A stretch of DNA of 64,000 nucleotides from an uncultured bacterium. GTDB lineage: Bacteria; Patescibacteriota; Minisyncoccia; Phycocordibacterales; UBA6065. Positions within the stretch are counted from its first letter, which is position 1. Each line of letters starts with the position of its first letter. Positions 259-10,181 of this stretch are shown piece by piece. The translations under genes were made by a program, and so were the position numbers. A model generated the notes under the pieces. That model was not told the DNA's origin and searched no databases. It saw only the letters and a list, made by a program, of their open reading frames with translations. Location of the stretch: contig CAWJEP010000004.1 in the NCBI GenBank assembly GCA_963841935.1, positions 14,975 through 78,974 on the forward strand, written 5' to 3'.

Positions 259-834
259 ATGAAAATCAGTCTGTATTTCGCTCAATCTCTGACAAAGGCG
301 CCTCCGCGGCTCATCGCGTCAATCGAGCGTTTCCGTCAGCGCGTAAAGAAAAGACATCCCGAGTGGGAGCTCTTGGAATTTTTCGGGCTCGGGCCGAGCC
401 CGAACGACGGCAAGATCGCCAAGTTCGACATCATCAGGCTTCTGCGGGCCAGGCTCGTAGTGGCGTTCATCGAAGGCGAATCGGCTGGGAGGGATATCGA
501 AATCGGCATACGACTCGCACTCGGATTGCCGATCTTGATTGTCGCCCACAAGAATTGGGTCAGGTCTAGGATGGTCACCGGGCCGGCGGAGCTTTGGCCG
601 AAGTTCGTGAAGTTTCGCCGGTATCGGCGGATAAACGAAGTCGAGGGCATGATAGTCGCGGCCATTAAGCGCTTCGGGTTCAAGGACTTTTATGCGCCGT
701 CGGTCTATGTCGCTCCGCATTTGCAGGAGCTGTACAAAAAGGCCGTCAGGAAATGTCTTGTGGGCCCGGGACCGGGAAGGATTGGATATATTACTGACCC
801 GGATACAAAGGAGCTCAAGTTGGTCTTTGGCTAA
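259..834 (+). CDS. hypothetical protein; weak resemblance to the nucleoside 2-deoxyribosyltransferase-like fold
   Basis: 191-aa ORF with higher GC than its neighbours. The motif VAFIEGESAGRDIEIGIRLALGLPILIVAHKN resembles the E.G...G.P catalytic-Glu region of the NDT-like family. It lies next to nucleotide-metabolism genes. The functional call is weak. Confidence 0.45.
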   Translation: MKISLYFAQSLTKAPPRLIASIERFRQRVKKRHPEWELLEFFGLGPSPNDGKIAKFDIIRLLRARLVVAFIEGESAGRDIEIGIRLALGLPILIVAHKNWVRSRMVTGPAELWPKFVKFRRYRRINEVEGMIVAAIKRFGFKDFYAPSVYVAPHLQELYKKAVRKCLVGPGPGRIGYITDPDTKELKLVFG

Positions 835-891: not shown

Positions 892-1389
892 ATGGAAAAA
901 ACTACAAAACATGTGCGACCAAGCTGGGATGAATATTTCATAAAAATTTGCCGCGTTGTTGGCGAGCGGGCGACGTGCGATAGAGGTTCAGGAGGCTGCG
1001 TGATTGTTAAAGACAAAAGAATTCTTACGACGGGTTATGTCGGAGCGCCTGCCGGAGTCGCTCATTGCGATGAGGTGGGCCACGAACTTCACACGGTGAT
1101 AGACGATGACGGCACGCAATCAAAACATTGCATCAGAACATCGCACGGCGAACAAAACGCCATCGCGAACGCCGCGAGAAAAGGCGTGGCCATCGAAGGC
1201 GCGACGCTTTATTATTTCATTACGCCCTGCTATATCTGCGCCAAGATGATTATCAACTCCGGAATAAAACGAGTCGTGGTGGAAAAGGATTATCATTCTT
1301 CGAAAAGAAGCAAAGAAGTATTCAAAGAAGCCGGTGTCGAATTCGTCCTTCTCAATCCAGAAGTGGAAACTTACGCGGATATGAAATAG
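892..1389 (+). CDS. dCMP deaminase (cytidine/deoxycytidylate deaminase family)
   Basis: HGEQNAI (zinc-binding H.E) and PCYICAKMIINSGIKRVV (PC..C) motifs; 165 aa. Confidence 0.8.
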   Translation: MEKTTKHVRPSWDEYFIKICRVVGERATCDRGSGGCVIVKDKRILTTGYVGAPAGVAHCDEVGHELHTVIDDDGTQSKHCIRTSHGEQNAIANAARKGVAIEGATLYYFITPCYICAKMIINSGIKRVVVEKDYHSSKRSKEVFKEAGVEFVLLNPEVETYADMK

Positions 1390-1390
1390 C

Positions 1391-2699
1391 TCACTCTTTC
1401 TTCACAATGTCGTGGAGACCGCGTTTGATGTTCCAAATGCCCGCCGAGGTGTCGTGGTGCATTGCGATGCCCGGAACGCTTTCTTTGATGGCGTCGCCCA
1501 TTCTTTGAGCTTCACGGCGTAGTGTCGGATGGACAGCGTCTCCGGAGCGCAGCTCGGCGATATAGACGGCGGAGGGAAGTGGACAGGTGATTTTGACCGT
1601 CACGGTGTATCCCATTGCCACGTAATATTGTTTTATTTCTTTTGAAGTTTTCAGTTTGGCAATTCTTTTTTCTTGTTCTGCCAAAAGTTTCGCCGCTTCT
1701 TTTTTTAATTCCGGCGTGAGCTGTTCGAGATACCACGGATAAAATCCGTGGGCCGTTGAAAGCAGAGGCATTTCTTGCACGGCGCTTCGATGACGTTGCA
1801 AGTCCCTATATGAACCGAAATCCAAAGAGAACCTGAAAACAATATCACCGTATTCACGCAATCTCTGGTGAAGTTCGGTCTTTGCCGGCCTTTCGGCGAG
1901 AAGTTTTTGGTGTTTTTTCAAGCCATCGAGGTCGAGACGGACTTCATACGAGAAATTTTTTATTGTCGCATCGTCAAAATAGGCGAACTCCGCCATTGTT
2001 TTTTCCAAATAATCATCCTCTGCCGGATATTCAGGATAGCCAAAGCTCGACGGGTATTTTGTTTTCAGTCCTGAAAGTATGTTGTTTGCAACTTCCCGCA
2101 CTTCGGAGAGTGGATGATGACGCATTTCCTTCATGTGGTCGTAAGCTTGGCGGAGGTTCGTGTGCCAAGCGACGTATGTCGTCGCGCCGGCCGGAAGAAA
2201 TCCTCGCGCGATGTCGAAAGCGCGGGCCTTTATGGCTTTTTCGTATATCGTTTCTTTTTCTCCTTCTTTTATCGGGAAGCGAACCTTGAGTGACGGCACA
2301 AGTTTTTCCAAAGCGTGGCTGTAAAATTTCATCCATTCGTCCTGAATCTCTTTGCTTTCCTTTCGTCTCAAGCGGATCGACGACCGGCTGATTCGCCATG
2401 TCCAGATAGCGCGTCGAAGCCTCTTGGCCGCTGTATAGTGGCCAGTCCTGAATGGCTTTGGCTACGAGCATCGAAACGTTTTCCGCGCATATGGTCGTCG
2501 TGCCGCAGTCGCCGATGGATTTGTGTCCGTAACCGACGTAGTAGCTCGCCATAAATTTCTCCGGTCCGACTTTCGCCACTTCTTCGAGATGGATTTTCGC
2601 GCTCCGCGGACTTCTTGAATATTTCGCCTGAATCATCGCCACCGCTTCGGGAGCGATGCCGTCAATTATTATTATTTCTCTCTGTTTTTTTTCTTCCAT
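1391..2699 (-). CDS. thyX: flavin-dependent thymidylate synthase ThyX, tandem-duplicated (two ThyX-like halves); reading frame interrupted by one frameshift near 2335-2395
   Basis: Two overlapping minus-strand ORFs (2031..2699 and 1391..2371) in different frames. The N-terminal half carries GHKS...VAKAIQDWPLYSGQEASTRY. The C-terminal half carries VFRFSLDFGSYRDLQRHRS and ARGFLPAGATTYVAWHTNLRQ, all ThyX-like. Confidence 0.6.
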
Positions 2700-2733
2700 A
2701 GCGTTAAAATATTATTGAGCTATTATAGAACAA

Positions 2734-3906
2734 ATGAAAGACAAAGAGATAGAGAAACTCATAAAGGCGGAAGACAAGCGACAGAAAAGCGTGGTGAATC
2801 TCATCGCCTCGGAAAATTATGTTTCCGACGATGTTTTAGCCGCGCTCGGCTCCGTACTGACGAATAAATACGCCGAAGGTTATCCGGCGGCAAGGTATTA
2901 CGGAGGAAATGAAATCACGGACAAAGTAGAAGTCTTGGCGAAGAAGCGCGCGCTTGCGGCATTTGGACTTTCCGAAAACGAATGGAGCGTAAATGTTCAG
3001 CCACTTTCGGGTTCGCCTGCAAACCTAGCGGTTTATCTCGCTCTTGTTCCTCCGCACGAAAAAGTAATGGGAATGTCTCTCGACCAAGGCGGACATCTGA
3101 CCCACGGACACAAAGTTTCCATTACCGGAAAAGTCTGGACGCAAATCCCGTACGGCGTTTCCAAAGAAACTGAAGTCATCGATTACGAAGAAATAAAAAA
3201 TAAAGCCGTGGCGGAGAAACCGAGAATGATTATCGCCGGATTTACCGCCTATCCGCGCGTCATCGATTGGAAAAAATTCCGCGAAATCGCCGACGCCTGC
3301 GGCGCGTATCTGATGGTCGATATGTCTCACATCGCGGGACTTGTCGCGGGCGGCGCGTATCCGTCGCCGTTTCCTTACGCCGATGTCGTAACGACGACCG
3401 TGCATAAAACTCTTCGCGGTCCGCGCTCGGCTATCATTTTTTCCAAGAAAGACGAGCGCGAACTCGGCAAGAAAATCGACAAGGCTGTTTTCCCGGGACT
3501 TCAGGGCGGGCCGCATTTAAATCAAATCGCCGCTGTCGCGGTAGCGCTCAAGGAAGCCACAGCTCCGGCATTCAAAAAATACGCCAAGCAAATCATTTTA
3601 AACGCCCGAAAGCTCGCAAGCGAGCTTTCGGGCCTCGGCTGGAAGATTATTTCCGGCGGCACGGACTCGCACCTAATTTTGGTCAATGTTTTCGGCACAG
3701 TTGGTTACGGCGGCAAAGAAGCAAGCGACAGGTTGGAAAAGGCCGGCATAATCGTCAACAAAAACGCTATTCCATATGACACTCGACCGCCGGTTGACCC
3801 TTCAGGCATTCGCCTCGGCACCGCGGGTGAGACGACTCGCGGAGCGAAAGAAAAAGATATGGTCGCGCTCGCCGAAAGAATGGATAAAATCCTGCGCGGA
3901 AAATGA
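2734..3906 (+). CDS. glyA: serine hydroxymethyltransferase
   Basis: LIASENYVSDDVLAALGSVLTNKYAEGYPAARYYGG and TTTVHKTLRGPRSAIIF motifs. Confidence 0.9.
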   Translation: MKDKEIEKLIKAEDKRQKSVVNLIASENYVSDDVLAALGSVLTNKYAEGYPAARYYGGNEITDKVEVLAKKRALAAFGLSENEWSVNVQPLSGSPANLAVYLALVPPHEKVMGMSLDQGGHLTHGHKVSITGKVWTQIPYGVSKETEVIDYEEIKNKAVAEKPRMIIAGFTAYPRVIDWKKFREIADACGAYLMVDMSHIAGLVAGGAYPSPFPYADVVTTTVHKTLRGPRSAIIFSKKDERELGKKIDKAVFPGLQGGPHLNQIAAVAVALKEATAPAFKKYAKQIILNARKLASELSGLGWKIISGGTDSHLILVNVFGTVGYGGKEASDRLEKAGIIVNKNAIPYDTRPPVDPSGIRLGTAGETTRGAKEKDMVALAERMDKILRGK

Positions 3907-4532
3907 AAAAAGGAAAATTCATCGTGATTGATGGCGGCGAAGGCTCCGGCAAAAGCACCCAGCTCCAATTTTTAAAAGAAAAATATCCGAAAGCTCTGTT
4001 TACCCGCGAACCTGGAGGCTCGGAATACGGCGAAGAAATCAGAAACCTGATGCTCAAATCACCTTTGGCGAAAGAAGCGAGCGCCGAGACGCAGTTCGGT
4101 CTCATTTGGGCGAACCGTGCCGATCACATCGCCAGAAAAGTCCGACCCGCTCTCGATAATGGCGTAAATGTGATTTCCGACAGATTCGATTCGTCGACAT
4201 TCGCTTATCAAATATACGGCCAAGAGGGAACGGAACTGAAAGATTTGTTTTTTGAGATAAGAAAAATTTTTATAAAAGAGTGTGTGCCGGATCTTTATGT
4301 CTTTTTCGACATATCGCCGGAGGAAAGCATCAAAAGGACAACGATGCGCGCGAATCTTTTCGGCGAGAGCAACCACTTCGACGAAAGAAAAATAGAATTT
4401 CACCGCCGTGTGCGGGAAGGTTACGCGGAATTCGCCAAGATTTTCCCGAAGAATGTGAGAATCATCGACGCCAGCGGTTCGAAAGAGGAAGTCTGGAAAT
4501 CGTTTCAAAAAATTCTGGACCCGATTCTTTGA
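3903..4532 (+). CDS. tmk: thymidylate kinase
   Basis: P-loop IVIDGGEGSGKSTQ. Start overlaps the glyA stop (ATGA). Confidence 0.85.
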   Translation: MKKGKFIVIDGGEGSGKSTQLQFLKEKYPKALFTREPGGSEYGEEIRNLMLKSPLAKEASAETQFGLIWANRADHIARKVRPALDNGVNVISDRFDSSTFAYQIYGQEGTELKDLFFEIRKIFIKECVPDLYVFFDISPEESIKRTTMRANLFGESNHFDERKIEFHRRVREGYAEFAKIFPKNVRIIDASGSKEEVWKSFQKILDPIL

Positions 4533-4556
4533 TTTTCGGCGTGGTAAAATATTTCA

Positions 4557-4991
4557 ATGAGTAAAACCTTAAAAATCGTAAGAGTTTCCGAAGTCGTGCC
4601 TGTGCCGAAATACAGCCTCAAGGGCGATGCCGGTTTTGACCTTTATGTGGGCGAGCGACTTGTCTTAAATCCTATGAAACGGGCGTCGGTAAACACCGGA
4701 TACAAGTTGGAGATTCCTTACGGCTGCGTCGGTATTATTTACGAAAAAAGCGGACTCTCGCATAAAAACGGCATTATCACTTTTGGCAATGTCATTGACG
4801 CCGGCTATCGCGGCGAAGTGAAGGTCGGTGTAATAAATCTCGGCGAAGAGCCTTATGTTTTCGAGCCGGGACACAAAATCGCCCAAATGATTGTGCACAA
4901 ATTTGAAACTATGAAATTCAAAGAAGTAAAAGACGGAGAGCTTTCTAAATCCGAACGCGGCGACCGCGGGTTCGGCAGCACGGGAAAATAA
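4557..4991 (+). CDS. dut: dUTP diphosphatase (dUTPase)
   Basis: GDAGFDL, GIIDAGYRGEV-like and C-terminal RGDRGFGSTG motifs. Confidence 0.85.
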   Translation: MSKTLKIVRVSEVVPVPKYSLKGDAGFDLYVGERLVLNPMKRASVNTGYKLEIPYGCVGIIYEKSGLSHKNGIITFGNVIDAGYRGEVKVGVINLGEEPYVFEPGHKIAQMIVHKFETMKFKEVKDGELSKSERGDRGFGSTGK

Positions 4992-4995
4992 TTTT

Positions 4996-6714
4996 ATGGA
5001 AATCCAAAAAGAGTTAAAGACGCAAATAGAAAAAGCCCTGAAAAATCTCGGCCTTACCGCGCCGGAAATAATATTGGAATATCCGTCCGACATATCTTTT
5101 GGAGATTTCGCCACGAATGTCGCTATGAGCGCCGCGAAACAAGCGAAGAAAAACCCGCGCGAATTTGCGGAGCAAATTCGCGCCCAGCTTATCGAAAACA
5201 AACCGAAGTTTTTGGAGAAAATAGAAGTTGCCGGTCCTGGTTTCATAAACTTTTTTCTTTCGCGGCAATTTTTCGCTGATAATTTGGCGGAAGTAGCCAA
5301 ACAAAAAGAAAAATTCGGACAGAACAAACTTTTCAAAGGCGAAAAAGTTCTCGTCGAGTACACCGACCCGAATCCTTTCAAACCTTTTCACATAGGACAC
5401 CTGATGAGCAATGCCATAGGGGAATCGATTGCTTGTCTATATGAAAATTCCGGAGGAAATGTCAAAAGAATGTGTTATCAAGGCGATGTGGGACTTCATG
5501 TGGCTAAAGCCATATACGGAATGCATCAAGCCGGCATGCCGAAGGATATGTCGGCTTCGGCGTCGATTCTTGCTCAATATATCGGCGAATGTTACGCGAA
5601 AGGAAGTGCCGCGTATGAAAAAGAATCCGAAGCGAAAAAATGGATTGACGATGTGAATAAAAAAATTTACGCCAGAAGCGATAAAGAAGTCAGCCAAGTT
5701 TACGATTGGGGAAGAAAAATCACACTCGAAGCCTTCGAAGAAATCTACAAAATTTTGGGTACGAAATTCGATTTTTCTTTTTTCGAGAGTGAGGTCGTAA
5801 AAGAAGGCGAGAAAATCGTCAGTGAATCTTTGAAAAAAGGAATTTTCGAAAAAAGCGACGGAGCGGTGGTATTTCATGCGGAAAAATACGACAAAAAACT
5901 TCACACGAGAGTTTTCATCACCTCGCAAGGACTTCCGACATACGAGACGAAAGAGCTCGGGCTCATAGAAAAGAAATTCAAGAAGATAAATCCGGATATT
6001 TCCATTACCATCACGGCAAACGAACAGGACGAATATTTCAAAGTCGTTTTGAAAGCCATTGAGCTCATTTTTCCGAAAATCAGAAACAAAACGGAACATA
6101 TTTCTCACGGAATGATGCGTTTCGCCGACGGAAAAATGTCTTCACGCACGGGCAATGTAATTTCTGGCGAGTCGCTCATCGCGGATATTGAAGATATGGT
6201 GGAAGAAAAAATAAAAGAAAGAGGTTTTGACGAGGCCACGAGGAAAGACATTGCCCAAAAAGTCGCCGTCGCGGCGATTAAATATTCGATTTTGCGACAG
6301 GGAATATCGAGTGACATCATTTTTGACGCCGACAAGTCCATTTCATTCGAAGGCGACTCCGGTCCGTATCTTCAATACGCCGTCGTACGGGCGAATTCCG
6401 TTTTGGAAAAAGCCAAGAAGGAGGGCCTGAAAGTTTCCGTTAAAAGTCCGGACGAATCGGCGAGTTTGCTCGAGAGGAAACTTTCGAGGTTTCCGGAAAT
6501 CGCGGCGCGCGCCGTGAAGGAGCGCGCGCCGCATCATATCGCCACATATCTGACCGACCTCGCGTCAGAATTCAACTCCTATTACGCTGTGACAAAAATT
6601 ATCGACAAAGAAAATCCGCATTCGTCTTATCGTCTCGCGCTCACAAATGCTTTTGAAATTATTATGAAAAACGGCCTCTCGCTTCTCGGCATCGAAATCC
6701 CCAGCAAAATGTAG
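4996..6714 (+). CDS. argS: arginine--tRNA ligase
   Basis: Class I HIGH motif (PFKPFHIGHLMSNAIGE), ArgS-like length (572 aa) and a DALR-like C-terminus. Confidence 0.9.
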   Translation: MEIQKELKTQIEKALKNLGLTAPEIILEYPSDISFGDFATNVAMSAAKQAKKNPREFAEQIRAQLIENKPKFLEKIEVAGPGFINFFLSRQFFADNLAEVAKQKEKFGQNKLFKGEKVLVEYTDPNPFKPFHIGHLMSNAIGESIACLYENSGGNVKRMCYQGDVGLHVAKAIYGMHQAGMPKDMSASASILAQYIGECYAKGSAAYEKESEAKKWIDDVNKKIYARSDKEVSQVYDWGRKITLEAFEEIYKILGTKFDFSFFESEVVKEGEKIVSESLKKGIFEKSDGAVVFHAEKYDKKLHTRVFITSQGLPTYETKELGLIEKKFKKINPDISITITANEQDEYFKVVLKAIELIFPKIRNKTEHISHGMMRFADGKMSSRTGNVISGESLIADIEDMVEEKIKERGFDEATRKDIAQKVAVAAIKYSILRQGISSDIIFDADKSISFEGDSGPYLQYAVVRANSVLEKAKKEGLKVSVKSPDESASLLERKLSRFPEIAARAVKERAPHHIATYLTDLASEFNSYYAVTKIIDKENPHSSYRLALTNAFEIIMKNGLSLLGIEIPSKM

Positions 6715-6728
6715 TAGAATGGCTCTGT

Positions 6729-9700
6729 ATGGAGCAAAAACCTAGGAATAAGCTTGTGGAAATCGAGGAAGAAATTCTCGCTTTTTGGAACAAGGAGAAA
6801 ATCTTTCAAAAATCCCTCGAAAAAGAATCTCCTATGGGCGAGTTTGTTTTCTACGACGGACCACCATTCGCCACGGGTTCGCCGCACTACGGGCACGCTC
6901 TGGCCGGGACAATCAAAGATGTCGTCTTGCGATACAAGACGATGCGCGGATTTCGCATTCCTCGTCGCTGGGGTTGGGATTGCCACGGATTGCCCGTGGA
7001 AAATCTCGTCGAGAAAGAACTCAATCTCGCCACGAAAAAAGATATTGAAAAATACGGCGTCGAGAAATTCAACGAAGCGGCGAGAGCGAGTGTTTTTCGT
7101 TATGAAAAAGAGTGGAAGAAAATTATTCCGCGCACGGGGAGATGGATGGATATGGAAAATCCTTACAGCACCATGGATTCGTCATACACGGAATCGGTCT
7201 GGTGGGCGTTTAGTAAACTTCACAAAAAAAATCTCATCTATGAAGGATATAAATCGATGCAGATTTGTCCGCGTTGCGAGACGACCTTGTCGAATTTCGA
7301 AGTCGGGCAAGGATACAAAGACGTCACGGATATTTCCGTTTACGCGAAATTCGAACTCATTGACGAGCCGAACACATTTCTCCTCGCTTGGACGACCACG
7401 CCATGGACATTGCCGGGGAATGCGGCTCTAGCGGTCGGCAGGAATATAAATTATTCAAAAGTTTTGTGCGAAAACGCGATATGTATCGTCGCCGAAGAAA
7501 AAGTCGCCGAAGTTTTTGCCGGAAAACAATATGAAACAGCCGGAAAAATTCTCGGGAGCGGGCTTGTCGGAAAAGAATACGAACCGCTGTTTGATTATTA
7601 CGACGATGATTCGATAAAAAATCACGGGAACGCTTTTAAAGTTTACGCCGCGGATTTTGTCACGACCACTGACGGCACGGGAATCGTCCACATCGCTCCG
7701 GCGTTCGGCGAAGACGATATGAATCTGGGCCGTGAATACGATTTGCCTTTTATCCAGCACGTCTCGATGGACGGAACTTTCAAAAAAGAAGTCAGAGATT
7801 TCGCCGGCCTTCATGTAAAGCCGAAAGACGACCCGCAGAAAACGGACATAGAAATCATCAAATGGCTCGCGGCGAAAAACCTGCTTTTCGCCAAGAAAAA
7901 AATCGTCCATCCGTATCCGCATTGCTGGCGTTGCGACACGCCACTTCTCAATTACGCCGCGAGCTCGTGGTTCGTGAAAGTGGCGAGTTTCAAGGATAAA
8001 TTGGTTTCTGAAAACAAAAAAGTCTCGTGGGTACCAAGCGAAATCGGCGAAAACAGGTTTGGCGATTGGCTTTCCGGCGCGCGGGATTGGGCTATTTCGC
8101 GTTCGCGTTTCTGGGGCGCGCCTATTCCAGTCTGGCGTTGCGAAGATTGCGATAGGGCAAAGGTCGTCGGCTCGCTTGAAGACATAAAAAAATATTCAAA
8201 GCCGAGAAACAAATACATTTTGATGCGCCACGGCGAGTCCGAAAGCAATGTTTTGGGCTTGGCAAGCGTAAATGTTCATAACAAAGACAATGTTACCGAG
8301 AAAGGCAGAGGGGAAACGGTATTTTCGGCCAAGAAACTTTCCGGCGAGAAAATAGACCTCGTAGTTTCTTCACCTTTTATTAGGACAAGAGAAACAGCGG
8401 AAATCATGGCGGAAAATATCGGATACCCGAAAGAAAAAATAGAATACGATAATCGTTTGGGAGAATTGAACATCGGAATTTTCGACGGTAAACCTTGGAG
8501 CGAGTATCACGGTTTTGTCGGAACTTATCAAAACAGATTTATCAAAGCACCCGAAGGCGGCGAGACGCTTTTTGAAGTCAGAGAAAGGATGCTTTCGGCG
8601 CTTTACGACATTGATAAAAAAAATACCGGGAAAACTATTCTCATCATGAGTCACGAAGCGCCGCTTTTCGTCCTCGACCAAGCGGTTTTGGGAGTTGACC
8701 CGAAAAAAACCGTAAAGCACGGAGAGTTTTTGAAAAACGCAGAGTTCAAGAAAATAAATTTCGTTCATCTTCCTCACGATAAAAATTTCAAAACGGATTT
8801 TCATCGGCCTTTCATCGACCAGATTTTCCTCTCCTGCGAATGCGGTGGAAAAATGAAACGCGTGCCGGAAGTTTTCGACTGCTGGTTTGAATCCGGCTCG
8901 ATGCCTTACGCCTCGGCGCATTATCCTTTCGAAAAAGAAAATTTTTCTCCGAGAAAATTTTTCAAAAGCAAGCGCTATCCGGCGGATTTTATCGCCGAGG
9001 GACTCGACCAAACTCGCGGATGGTTTTATTCGATGCTCGTCCTCGGCACGGCGCTTTTCGGAAAAACACCCTATAAAAATGTGGTGGTAAACGGCCTTAT
9101 TCTCGCCGAAGACGGCACAAAAATGTCCAAATCAAAAGGCAATTTCTCGCCGCTTATGGATACCATGGACAAATACGGCGCGGACGCTTTGCGGTATTTT
9201 CTGTCCGCGTCGCCCGCCGTCCGCGCCGAAGACGTGTGTTTTTCCGAAAAAAGCGTCGATGAAGTATCGAAAAAGCTTTTGCAAAGACTCGACAACGTTT
9301 TGGCTTTTTACGAACTTTACGCCGACAAGAAATTTGTCGAGAAAACCGAGCCGAAAAATATTTTGGACAAATGGATACTCGCCAGACTCGATGAGACGAT
9401 AAAGAAAGTCACGGAAGCGCTCGAAAAATACGAGCTCGACCGAGGCGCGCGGCCGATTTTGGATTTCGTCGACGATATGTCGAATTGGTATATACGCCGT
9501 AGCCGAGAGAGGTTTAAATCCGACGACGAGGCAGACAAATCGGCCGCGCTAAACACTACGCGACACGTGCTCTGCGAACTTTCAAAGATTATGGCGCCGT
9601 TCACGCCTTTCTACGCCGAATATCTTTTCGGAAAAACGAAATTCGAAGGCGCGAAAGAAAGCGTTCATCTCGAAAATTGGCTGGAAGCGAAAACTTTCGA

Positions 9701-10181
9701 CGAGAAATTGGTTGACGATATGAAAGAAGCGAGAAAACTTGTGACGCTCGGCCTAGAACAAAGGGCGAAAGCCGGAATAAAAGTCCGCCAGCCCCTCTCA
9801 AGCGCGAAAATGAAAATCAGAAATCTAACGGCTGGCGTGTCAGCACTCATCGCGGACGAACTCAATGTCAAAGAAATCGTAAATAGCGACGGAGAGATTC
9901 AAATAGACACCAATATCACGCCGGCACTTCGCGAAGAGGGAACAGTCCGAGAGTTTGTCCGCGCGGTGCAGGAACTGCGTAAGGAGAATGGATTTTCCGT
10001 AAGCGACCATGCTGTTCTCTTAGTTGACTCCGACGAAAAAGGCAAGGAGCTCGTGTCCAAATCCCACGCCGAACTTAAAAAAGTCGCAAATGTTTCGGAA
10101 ATCAAGCACGAAAAAATCAACGATGCCGAACTTCTCAAAATCGAGGAATATTCTTTTAAACTCAAAATACTTAAGAAGTAA
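6729..10181 (+). CDS. ileS: isoleucine--tRNA ligase (archaeal/eukaryotic type) carrying an inserted histidine-phosphatase domain
   Basis: PPFATGSPHYGHAL, HCWRCDTPL, RDWAISRSRFWGAPIPVW, EVFDCWFESGSMPYA and KMSKSKGN motifs. Continuous 1150-aa ORF. Confidence 0.9.
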   Translation: MEQKPRNKLVEIEEEILAFWNKEKIFQKSLEKESPMGEFVFYDGPPFATGSPHYGHALAGTIKDVVLRYKTMRGFRIPRRWGWDCHGLPVENLVEKELNLATKKDIEKYGVEKFNEAARASVFRYEKEWKKIIPRTGRWMDMENPYSTMDSSYTESVWWAFSKLHKKNLIYEGYKSMQICPRCETTLSNFEVGQGYKDVTDISVYAKFELIDEPNTFLLAWTTTPWTLPGNAALAVGRNINYSKVLCENAICIVAEEKVAEVFAGKQYETAGKILGSGLVGKEYEPLFDYYDDDSIKNHGNAFKVYAADFVTTTDGTGIVHIAPAFGEDDMNLGREYDLPFIQHVSMDGTFKKEVRDFAGLHVKPKDDPQKTDIEIIKWLAAKNLLFAKKKIVHPYPHCWRCDTPLLNYAASSWFVKVASFKDKLVSENKKVSWVPSEIGENRFGDWLSGARDWAISRSRFWGAPIPVWRCEDCDRAKVVGSLEDIKKYSKPRNKYILMRHGESESNVLGLASVNVHNKDNVTEKGRGETVFSAKKLSGEKIDLVVSSPFIRTRETAEIMAENIGYPKEKIEYDNRLGELNIGIFDGKPWSEYHGFVGTYQNRFIKAPEGGETLFEVRERMLSALYDIDKKNTGKTILIMSHEAPLFVLDQAVLGVDPKKTVKHGEFLKNAEFKKINFVHLPHDKNFKTDFHRPFIDQIFLSCECGGKMKRVPEVFDCWFESGSMPYASAHYPFEKENFSPRKFFKSKRYPADFIAEGLDQTRGWFYSMLVLGTALFGKTPYKNVVVNGLILAEDGTKMSKSKGNFSPLMDTMDKYGADALRYFLSASPAVRAEDVCFSEKSVDEVSKKLLQRLDNVLAFYELYADKKFVEKTEPKNILDKWILARLDETIKKVTEALEKYELDRGARPILDFVDDMSNWYIRRSRERFKSDDEADKSAALNTTRHVLCELSKIMAPFTPFYAEYLFGKTKFEGAKESVHLENWLEAKTFDEKLVDDMKEARKLVTLGLEQRAKAGIKVRQPLSSAKMKIRNLTAGVSALIADELNVKEIVNSDGEIQIDTNITPALREEGTVREFVRAVQELRKENGFSVSDHAVLLVDSDEKGKELVSKSHAELKKVANVSEIKHEKINDAELLKIEEYSFKLKILKK
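8206..8775 (+). other. in-frame histidine phosphatase (PGAM-like, RHG superfamily) domain inserted within ileS
   Basis: YILMRHGESESN (RHG catalytic motif), SSPFIRTRETAE, ILIMSHEAPL (His-containing second half). It lies between IleS segments VVGSLEDIKKYS and TDFHRPFIDQIF, which are contiguous in canonical type-2 IleS. Confidence 0.7.

Follow-up and report, generated by a model that had tools for sequence, protein, structure and literature searches.

The long thyX locus

We analysed a 64,000-nucleotide stretch of DNA (the window) from an uncultured bacterium of the Patescibacteriota (GenBank assembly GCA_963841935.1, contig CAWJEP010000004.1, positions 14,975 to 78,974, forward strand), which carries on its minus strand a gene for the flavin-dependent thymidylate synthase (FDTS) ThyX. 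The thyX span measures 1309 nt, or 436 codons plus one base, and appears in the window as two overlapping minus-strand open reading frames (ORFs), one of 222 aa at 2031-2699 and one of 326 aa at 1391-2371. Removal of one base gives a 435-aa ThyX-like protein (minus strand, 1391-2699) with 92% full-length identity to intact homologues of 434-435 aa and 57-93% identity to 44 co-aligned relatives. Residues 1-113 of the upstream ORF and the downstream ORF minus its first four residues are both 85-92% identical to single-ORF proteins of 429-453 aa. A first-pass annotation of the DNA had described a product of about 436 aa, about double the usual length of ThyX; the doubled length is borne out, with the repaired protein one residue shorter.

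We refer to matches to the profile of this protein alignment (A1) as long ThyX, a family encoded by a single ORF of ~430-450 aa with two sets of hallmark residues: D-x-x/S-x-R-Y in an N-terminal domain, and R-H/Q-R plus the equivalent of Thermotoga maritima R174 in a C-terminal domain. All of these residues are present in the repaired window protein; as assembled, the gene is split by a 1-nt insertion. The locus encoding P0001 (L001) is the closest intact relative and was the reference for DNA alignment and for ratios of nonsynonymous to synonymous substitution rates (dN/dS). The following features were located, with residues numbered on the repaired protein:

1391..2699, minus strand: complete thyX locus, made up of 435 codons, a stop codon and one surplus base (ORF list, full-length homologues, translation check)
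2051..2651, minus strand: N-terminal ThyX domain, residues 17-216, containing the frameshift
1439..2023, minus strand: C-terminal degenerate ThyX domain, residues 226-420 (Pfam Thy1, AlphaFold model, Foldseek)
2406..2447, minus strand: N-domain motif region DWPLYSGQEASTRY, with D85-W86-P87 in place of Arg-His-Arg (RHR) and with S90, E93, S95, R97 and Y98 present
2150..2206, minus strand: N-domain stretch ARGFLPAG...TNLRQ, running from R165 (T. maritima R147) to R183 (R165) (hhalign and hmmsearch registers)
1754..1807, minus strand: C-domain motif region R298...R302-H303-R304-SAVQEMPLLST, with RHR and the R74 equivalent kept and the Ser-x-Arg-Tyr loop lost
1547..1630, minus strand: C-domain distal segment, with Q357 for R147, P375 for R165, and R384 equivalent to R174 (Mycobacterium tuberculosis R199) (hhalign)
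2359..2363, minus strand: frameshift site, an extra nucleotide in AAAGG after Lys113 (DNA alignment with L001, translation checks)

Two ThyX domains in one chain

The repaired protein matched Pfam Thy1 (PF02511) in two stretches with a total of 81 bits, above the gathering cutoff of 24.8. Searched separately, residues 1-224 scored 63.9 bits (E = 2.3e-17, profile positions 9-190 of 191), and residues 226-435 scored 22.5 bits, just below the cutoff, in a continuous match to positions 44-190 (E = 1.1e-4). Alignment of the N half with the C half by hhalign was not significant with a first narrow alignment and gave a weak match in a consistent register when 459 sequences were used (P = 0.004, E = 3.9e-3), while global hhalign modes produced no meaningful alignment.

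Sequence searches of all PDB chains with the repaired protein and a 45-sequence profile (phmmer, hmmsearch) matched no ThyX, and fold comparison was therefore used. The full-length AlphaFold model (predicted local distance difference test, pLDDT, 89.2; predicted template modelling score, pTM, 0.88) has the same strand and helix order twice over, and ThyX structures came first when it was compared with the PDB by Foldseek. The C half modelled alone (pLDDT 89.7) had 151 Foldseek matches at E ≤ 1e-3. The top matches listed were ThyX of T. maritima, Paramecium bursaria chlorella virus 1 (PBCV-1) and M. tuberculosis together with the methylase PolB (probability 1.00, template modelling (TM) score 0.55-0.59); across both models the probability was 1.00 and the TM score, relative to the target, 0.53-0.59. 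The predicted structure settles that the C half is a ThyX domain, and the matches of the C-half model to ThyX crystal structures rule out an unrelated second domain. The window protein thus has tandem ThyX domains in one polypeptide, the fused duplication that the first-pass annotation had proposed. No solved structure among the matches listed has this double architecture, the longest ThyX target being 270 residues.

Active-site residues are divided between the domains

ThyX reference sequences from T. maritima and from M. tuberculosis were verified as identical to their PDB entries, and the N-domain registers obtained against the former by hhalign and against the latter by hmmsearch agree. 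They give these equivalences between the N domain and T. maritima ThyX:

H59: H53
S61: T55 (M. tuberculosis S71)
D85-W86-P87: R78-H79-R80
S90: S83
E93: E86
S95: S88
R97: R90
Y98: Y91
R165: R147
N181: N163
R183: R165 (M. tuberculosis R190)
R193: R174

The N half therefore keeps the Ser...Arg-Tyr element and has DWP where RHR is expected, as the first-pass annotation had read it. The same annotation had assigned ARGFLPAGATTYVAWHTNLRQ to the C half, and this assignment fails: the segment spans residues 164-184, within the N domain.

In the C domain, a strand IVFRF (IVFTF in T. maritima) is followed by a helix that ends in R302-H303-R304. The equivalent N-domain helix ends at the same place in the full-length model with D85-W86-P87, which agrees with the earlier statement that the C half keeps RHR. 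RHR also falls on RHR in the best local hhalign alignment of the C domain, a match not significant alone. The C half aligned weakly to T. maritima ThyX by hhalign (E = 1.2e-3), with the same distal register as in the alignment of the two halves. The positions of R90-Y91 are occupied in the C domain by S314-T315 if the alignment is ungapped, or by A316-H317 if it is gapped, and no conserved Arg or Tyr follows the C-domain RHR in either register. The earlier description of ST in place of RY is accordingly right about the missing Arg and Tyr, and specific to the ungapped register as to their replacement. The ThyX signature RHR-x7-S-x-R(Y) is not found within one domain; throughout the family it is complete only when both domains are combined.

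The division is conserved across the family

We tabulated residues in 449 long ThyX sequences, comprising 190 unique close members, 142 representatives sharing 36-52% identity and another 117 distant members, among them sequences from outside Patescibacteria. In the N domain, S95 and R97 were found in 100% of all three sets, and E93, Y98, R165 and H59 in at least 94% of each; among close members E93, R165 and R183 were invariant and Y98 was present in 189 of 190. Not one of the 449 sequences has a complete RHR at positions 85-87 (Arg occurs at 87 in 7-8 sequences per set and is not listed at 85). In the C domain, R298, R302 and R384 were present in every sequence and R304 in all except two with Gln, both in the third set, while position 303 is H or Q and positions 310-315 are hydrophobic or Ser/Thr. 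Equivalents of S88, R90, Y91, R147 and R165 are absent from the C domain throughout the three sets, with Gln at 357 taking the place of R147 in 438 of 449 sequences (97%; 190/190, 133/142 and 115/117). All C domains keep the R174 equivalent, which is relaxed in the N domain (157/190, 41/142 and 58/117). The complementary loss of motifs that the first-pass annotation had noted in a single gene is thus a property of the duplicated family, the retained residues being invariant or nearly so in all three sets. Intact motifs in both halves are ruled out by the N-domain registers and by the residue table.

Residues that replace the lost ones are also conserved in part: D85 and W86 are invariant or nearly so in close members, W86 and P87 vary widely in distant ones, and D299, Q357 and Y379 are conserved across the family. 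Against the closest relative, dN/dS of the repaired gene was 0.058 over the N-domain part and 0.061 over the C-domain part, indicating that the 'degenerate' C half is as constrained as the N half, both under strong purifying selection.

Distribution of long ThyX

The long ThyX profile was searched against 1.84 billion representative sequences and matched 2749 clusters (defined at 50% identity) at E ≤ 1e-3; the stricter limits of E ≤ 1e-10 and E ≤ 1e-30 left 1736 and 773 clusters, respectively. The 773 clusters are mostly patescibacterial, and those inspected are all intact. The best 150 clusters are mostly proteins of ~420-550 aa that match the profile end to end, with about ten shorter fragments and a few longer sequences. 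A scan of one genome per GTDB species returned 436 loci, of which the best 80 were assessed for taxonomy and integrity. These 80 all come from Patescibacteria (Paceibacterota, Parcubacteria, Gracilibacteria, Peregrinibacteria, Uhrbacteria and others) and match the full query length, apart from a few cut by contig ends. Thousands of relatives in ultra-small bacteria have the double design, and Patescibacteria appear to use long ThyX as their standard thymidylate synthase.

A separate clade of ~450-aa long ThyX with the same residue split occurs in Zixibacteria, on contigs of up to 4.5 Mb, and in metagenome-assembled genomes (MAGs) labelled Nanoarchaeota (examples from outside Patescibacteria are P0343, P0312, P0449 and the gene at 4001-5353 of locus L084, which lies outside any cluster for thymidine monophosphate (dTMP) synthesis). 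Its members share 60-89% identity, and those named Nanoarchaeota are 64-65% identical to the Zixibacteria query. This sharing suggests that the gene passed horizontally between bacteria and DPANN archaea, or that MAGs were mis-binned.

One extra base in the N domain

DNA alignment with the closest relative showed a single additional nucleotide in the window, within GACGAAAGGAAAGC. Deleting any one base of the minus-strand AAAGG (2359-2363) restores ...DPLETK-ESKEIQDEW..., as in relatives, where D-P-L-x-T/S-K-E-S/G-K-E-I-Q is continuous in one frame. The domain boundary lies at about residue 225 (window ~2025); since both halves are ThyX domains joined there, the frame break after K113 falls in the middle of the N domain and not at the junction. 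The first-pass annotation had described a single +1/-1 break around 2335-2395 with the two halves in different frames; one break does lie in that interval, and the frame changes within the N half.

Beyond this 1-nt lesion we found no further stop or indel in the 1308 nt of thyX. All relatives inspected have an intact, single-frame gene, and the frameshift is private to this assembly. Among the genes that the window shares with the closest relative (~9 kb), only thyX is split, and dN/dS was 0.03 upstream and 0.07 downstream of the break. The likeliest source of the extra base is an error of assembly or sequencing, or else a lesion that arose very recently.

A real frameshift in a freshly inactivated pseudogene, in an organism that relies on salvage of thymidine or dTMP from its host, is a less likely explanation. 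The extra base is present in the assembled sequence, the annotation of the source genome calls only a truncated 313-aa product (P0055, 100% identical), and host dependence is common in Patescibacteria. Set against this are the solitary nature of the lesion, the low dN/dS on either side of it, the intact gene in every inspected relative and the intact neighbouring genes of the dTMP pathway, all of which would be compatible with a very recent mutation all the same. Programmed +1 ribosomal frameshifting is mechanically possible, as slippage of the P-site tRNA-Lys from AAA to AAG on A-AAG-G would give exactly ...TK-ESKEIQ...; we rejected it because the slip site is conserved in no relative. Every inspected homologue is a single ORF, including those 85-92% identical, the DNA of the site is not conserved and no conserved stimulatory element was identified, which makes recoding here barely credible. 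The frameshift in this assembly causes the truncated 313-aa call, which could lead pathway reconstructions to score dTMP synthesis wrongly as incomplete.

Gene neighbourhood and function

In the window, thyX lies between a dCMP deaminase gene and a divergent glyA-tmk-dut-argS run (2734-6714), forming a compact dTMP-pathway cluster (892-6714) whose order is kept in the closest relative, with thyX on the opposite strand. The neighbouring genes are:

892..1389, plus strand: dCMP deaminase (Pfam dCMP_cyt_deam_1, E = 7.7e-23)
2734-3906, plus strand: glyA, serine hydroxymethyltransferase (SHMT), divergent from thyX (Pfam labels of the syntenic L001 genes)
3903-4532, plus strand: tmk, overlapping glyA by 4 nt (Pfam labels of the L001 genes)
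4557-4991, plus strand: dut (Pfam labels of the syntenic L001 genes)

Across 82 related loci with flanks of at most 4-6 kb, SHMT was found beside thyX in 47, Tmk in 41 and dUTPase in 32, and dCMP deaminase lay within ~4 kb in 32. Neither the window nor these flanks yielded a ThyA. The conserved dTMP-pathway neighbours support a role as thymidylate synthase, and the long enzyme most likely still makes dTMP from deoxyuridine monophosphate (dUMP), judging from its genomic context.

We also considered that long ThyX may not be a thymidylate synthase, and may instead be a ThyX-fold enzyme with another substrate, as in PolB, or a non-catalytic protein. The score of the repaired protein against TIGR02170, the NCBIfam equivalog model for ThyX, is far under the cutoff (33 versus 87.9 bits), no solved ThyX is matched at the sequence level, PolB, which methylates uridine monophosphate (UMP) and dUMP, is among the fold matches, and our literature search found no assay of any long ThyX member. 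We hold this to be improbable in view of the conserved neighbours dCMP deaminase, SHMT, Tmk and dUTPase, the lack of ThyA in the window and in related flanks, and the retention, summed over the two domains, of all listed ThyX residues that contact flavin adenine dinucleotide (FAD) or dUMP, which are invariant. As for the equivalog model itself, the score of this one repaired protein suggests that TIGR02170 may miss the long ThyX family as a whole; if so, the ThyX annotation of its members must rest on other evidence.

Two further observations concern the surroundings of the cluster. At its edge, upstream of the dCMP deaminase gene, a 191-aa ORF (259-834, plus strand) has no Pfam match, and neither has the 134-aa product of the syntenic gene in L001 (7941-8345). 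Downstream, positions 6729-10181 (plus strand) encode a 1150-aa class I aminoacyl-tRNA synthetase resembling isoleucyl-tRNA synthetase, in which a histidine-phosphatase domain (Pfam His_Phos_1, residues 497-663, E = 1.5e-27) sits between two stretches matching models of the class I catalytic domain; the L001 homologue has the same Pfam pattern.

A dimer predicted to mimic the tetramer

Active site 1 of M. tuberculosis ThyX is built from three subunits (Pozzi et al. 2019, PMC6514825). Subunit A provides RHR (R95-H96-R97), in contact with dUMP and with the phosphates, ribityl chain and flavin of FAD, together with R199 (T. maritima R174), in contact with dUMP; subunit B provides S71 and R190, which contact FAD; and subunit C provides the backbone of Q103, S105, R107 and a lid, Y108, which contact dUMP and flavin (PMC6514825). 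For PBCV-1 ThyX, Basta et al. (2012, PMC3498832) likewise assign Q75 and R182 to one monomer (A) and S88 and Q89 to another (B). By residue correspondence, the division between the domains of long ThyX coincides exactly with these published roles, the C domain keeping the residues of role A only and the N domain those of roles B and C only.

The family probably arose by tandem duplication of the ThyX domain followed by complementary loss of active-site residues in the two copies. The C domain would supply role A, with RHR holding dUMP as well as the phosphates and flavin of FAD, and the R174 equivalent contacting dUMP. The N domain would supply roles B and C, with Ser/Thr55 and R165 (T. maritima numbering) on FAD and Glu86-Ser88-Arg90-Tyr91 as the substrate loop, in addition to R147 and H53. 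Two chains would then form a pseudo-tetramer (N1, C1, N2, C2). In a 222-symmetric tetramer of two N and two C domains, both N domains would neighbour each C domain across two pseudo-dyads; with each C domain flanked by both N domains, two complete FAD/dUMP sites would therefore result, (C1, N1, N2) and (C2, N2, N1). In the two reciprocal sites an N domain would take role A and C domains roles B and C; both of these sites would be dead and without any phosphate-binding residue. If the C domain takes role A, the R174 equivalent is expected to be relaxed in the N domain, as is observed. Given the split across 449 members and its match to the published subunit roles, a pseudo-tetramer with fewer, asymmetric sites, as the first-pass annotation had proposed, is the most economical reading of these sequences. 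Taken as a whole, we think it likely that long ThyX is a duplicated domain with complementary residue loss that acts as a dimer with two working and two dead sites and makes dTMP from dUMP, and that the copy in the window bears an extra base.

Several points weigh against this interpretation. We infer the two-site dimer from residue bookkeeping, and past the C-domain RHR the register is uncertain by two positions. A match to Thy1 at E ≤ 0.01 was reached by only 5 of 20 C halves, which together with the sub-cutoff Pfam score makes the sequence evidence for the C half marginal. R147 has no subunit assignment in the literature that we found. The low TIGR02170 score means that functional orthology is not guaranteed, and the thyX copy in the window is non-functional if its frameshift is real.

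All four sites of the pseudo-tetramer could alternatively be active, with residues such as K81, H188, H195, Q357 or Y379 replacing the missing Arg and Ser. The invariance of replacement residues (D85 and W86 in close members; Q357, Y379 and D299 in the family) does point to constraint on the 'degenerate' positions. A reciprocal site would, however, lack RHR, S88, R90, Y91 and R165 simultaneously, the replacements Asp, Trp, Pro, Leu, Met and Pro cannot bind phosphates, and W86 and P87 vary widely in distant members, so that four working sites are very improbable. More conceivable, if still doubtful, is that long ThyX enzymes are obligate asymmetric dimers whose dead pseudo-sites are conserved because they took on new uses, for example as a structural plug fixing the tetramer-like core, or as a pocket in which NADPH, folate or a nucleotide docks or acts allosterically. 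The conserved replacement residues and the equal constraint on the two domains (dN/dS 0.06) are compatible with this. If true, it would be the first natural ThyX with labour divided between catalytic and non-catalytic sites.

Relation to known enzymes and significance

Canonical homotetrameric ThyX/FDTS (TM0449, 1O26; Rv2754c, 3GWC) shares its fold with both halves of long ThyX, has the same set of FAD and dUMP contacts as the two halves summed and has the same genomic role beside glyA, tmk and dut. Unlike the canonical enzyme, long ThyX has two domains per chain, neither with a complete RHR-x7-S-x-R-Y, and is predicted to form a dimer with two sites in place of a tetramer with four. Its similarity to solved ThyX sequences is too low for phmmer or hmmsearch, and the repaired protein falls below the TIGR02170 cutoff. 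Long ThyX is nonetheless a variant of a known enzyme, and the large family is already annotated as ThyX in databases.

The Thermus thermophilus Thy1 with an extra C-terminal domain (6J61), which is among the fold matches, is longer than usual ThyX, but it has 270 aa, which leaves the extension far too short for a second ThyX domain, and its ThyX domain matches T. maritima ThyX over the full length (E = 2.3e-65). The methylase PolB of Streptomyces cacaoi (4P5A/4P5B), a ThyX-fold flavoenzyme from a secondary-metabolite context and a weak fold match to long ThyX, is a single domain without duplication and is near T. maritima ThyX (E = 3.7e-34). Chlamydial ThyX is reportedly ~530 aa long, about twice the normal length, and is said to have been assayed by Griffin et al. 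in 2005; we do not count this as evidence. Chlamydial ThyX was too divergent for inclusion in ThyX phylogenies (PMC6171736).

Duplication of the ThyX domain has been noticed before: in one sentence, Valas and Bourne (2009, PMC3224940) reported it for Chloroflexi and 'a few other species' and called the protein uncharacterised. Those proteins have two ThyX domains per polypeptide, as here, and were described without residue analysis (PMC3224940). The Chloroflexi proteins are compared here by that description, the named members of our family being from Patescibacteria, Zixibacteria and Nanoarchaeota MAGs. Our literature search returned no later account of duplicated ThyX, of complementary residue loss or of a dimeric ThyX.

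Long ThyX is abundant (773 clusters at E ≤ 1e-30), yet we found no solved structure and no assay for it. The active site of canonical ThyX is unusual in being built from three subunits, and in long ThyX the three roles appear to be hard-wired into two different domains, a ready-made natural experiment. The family would show which residues must come from which subunit, and it leads us to predict a ThyX that has half as many sites as usual.

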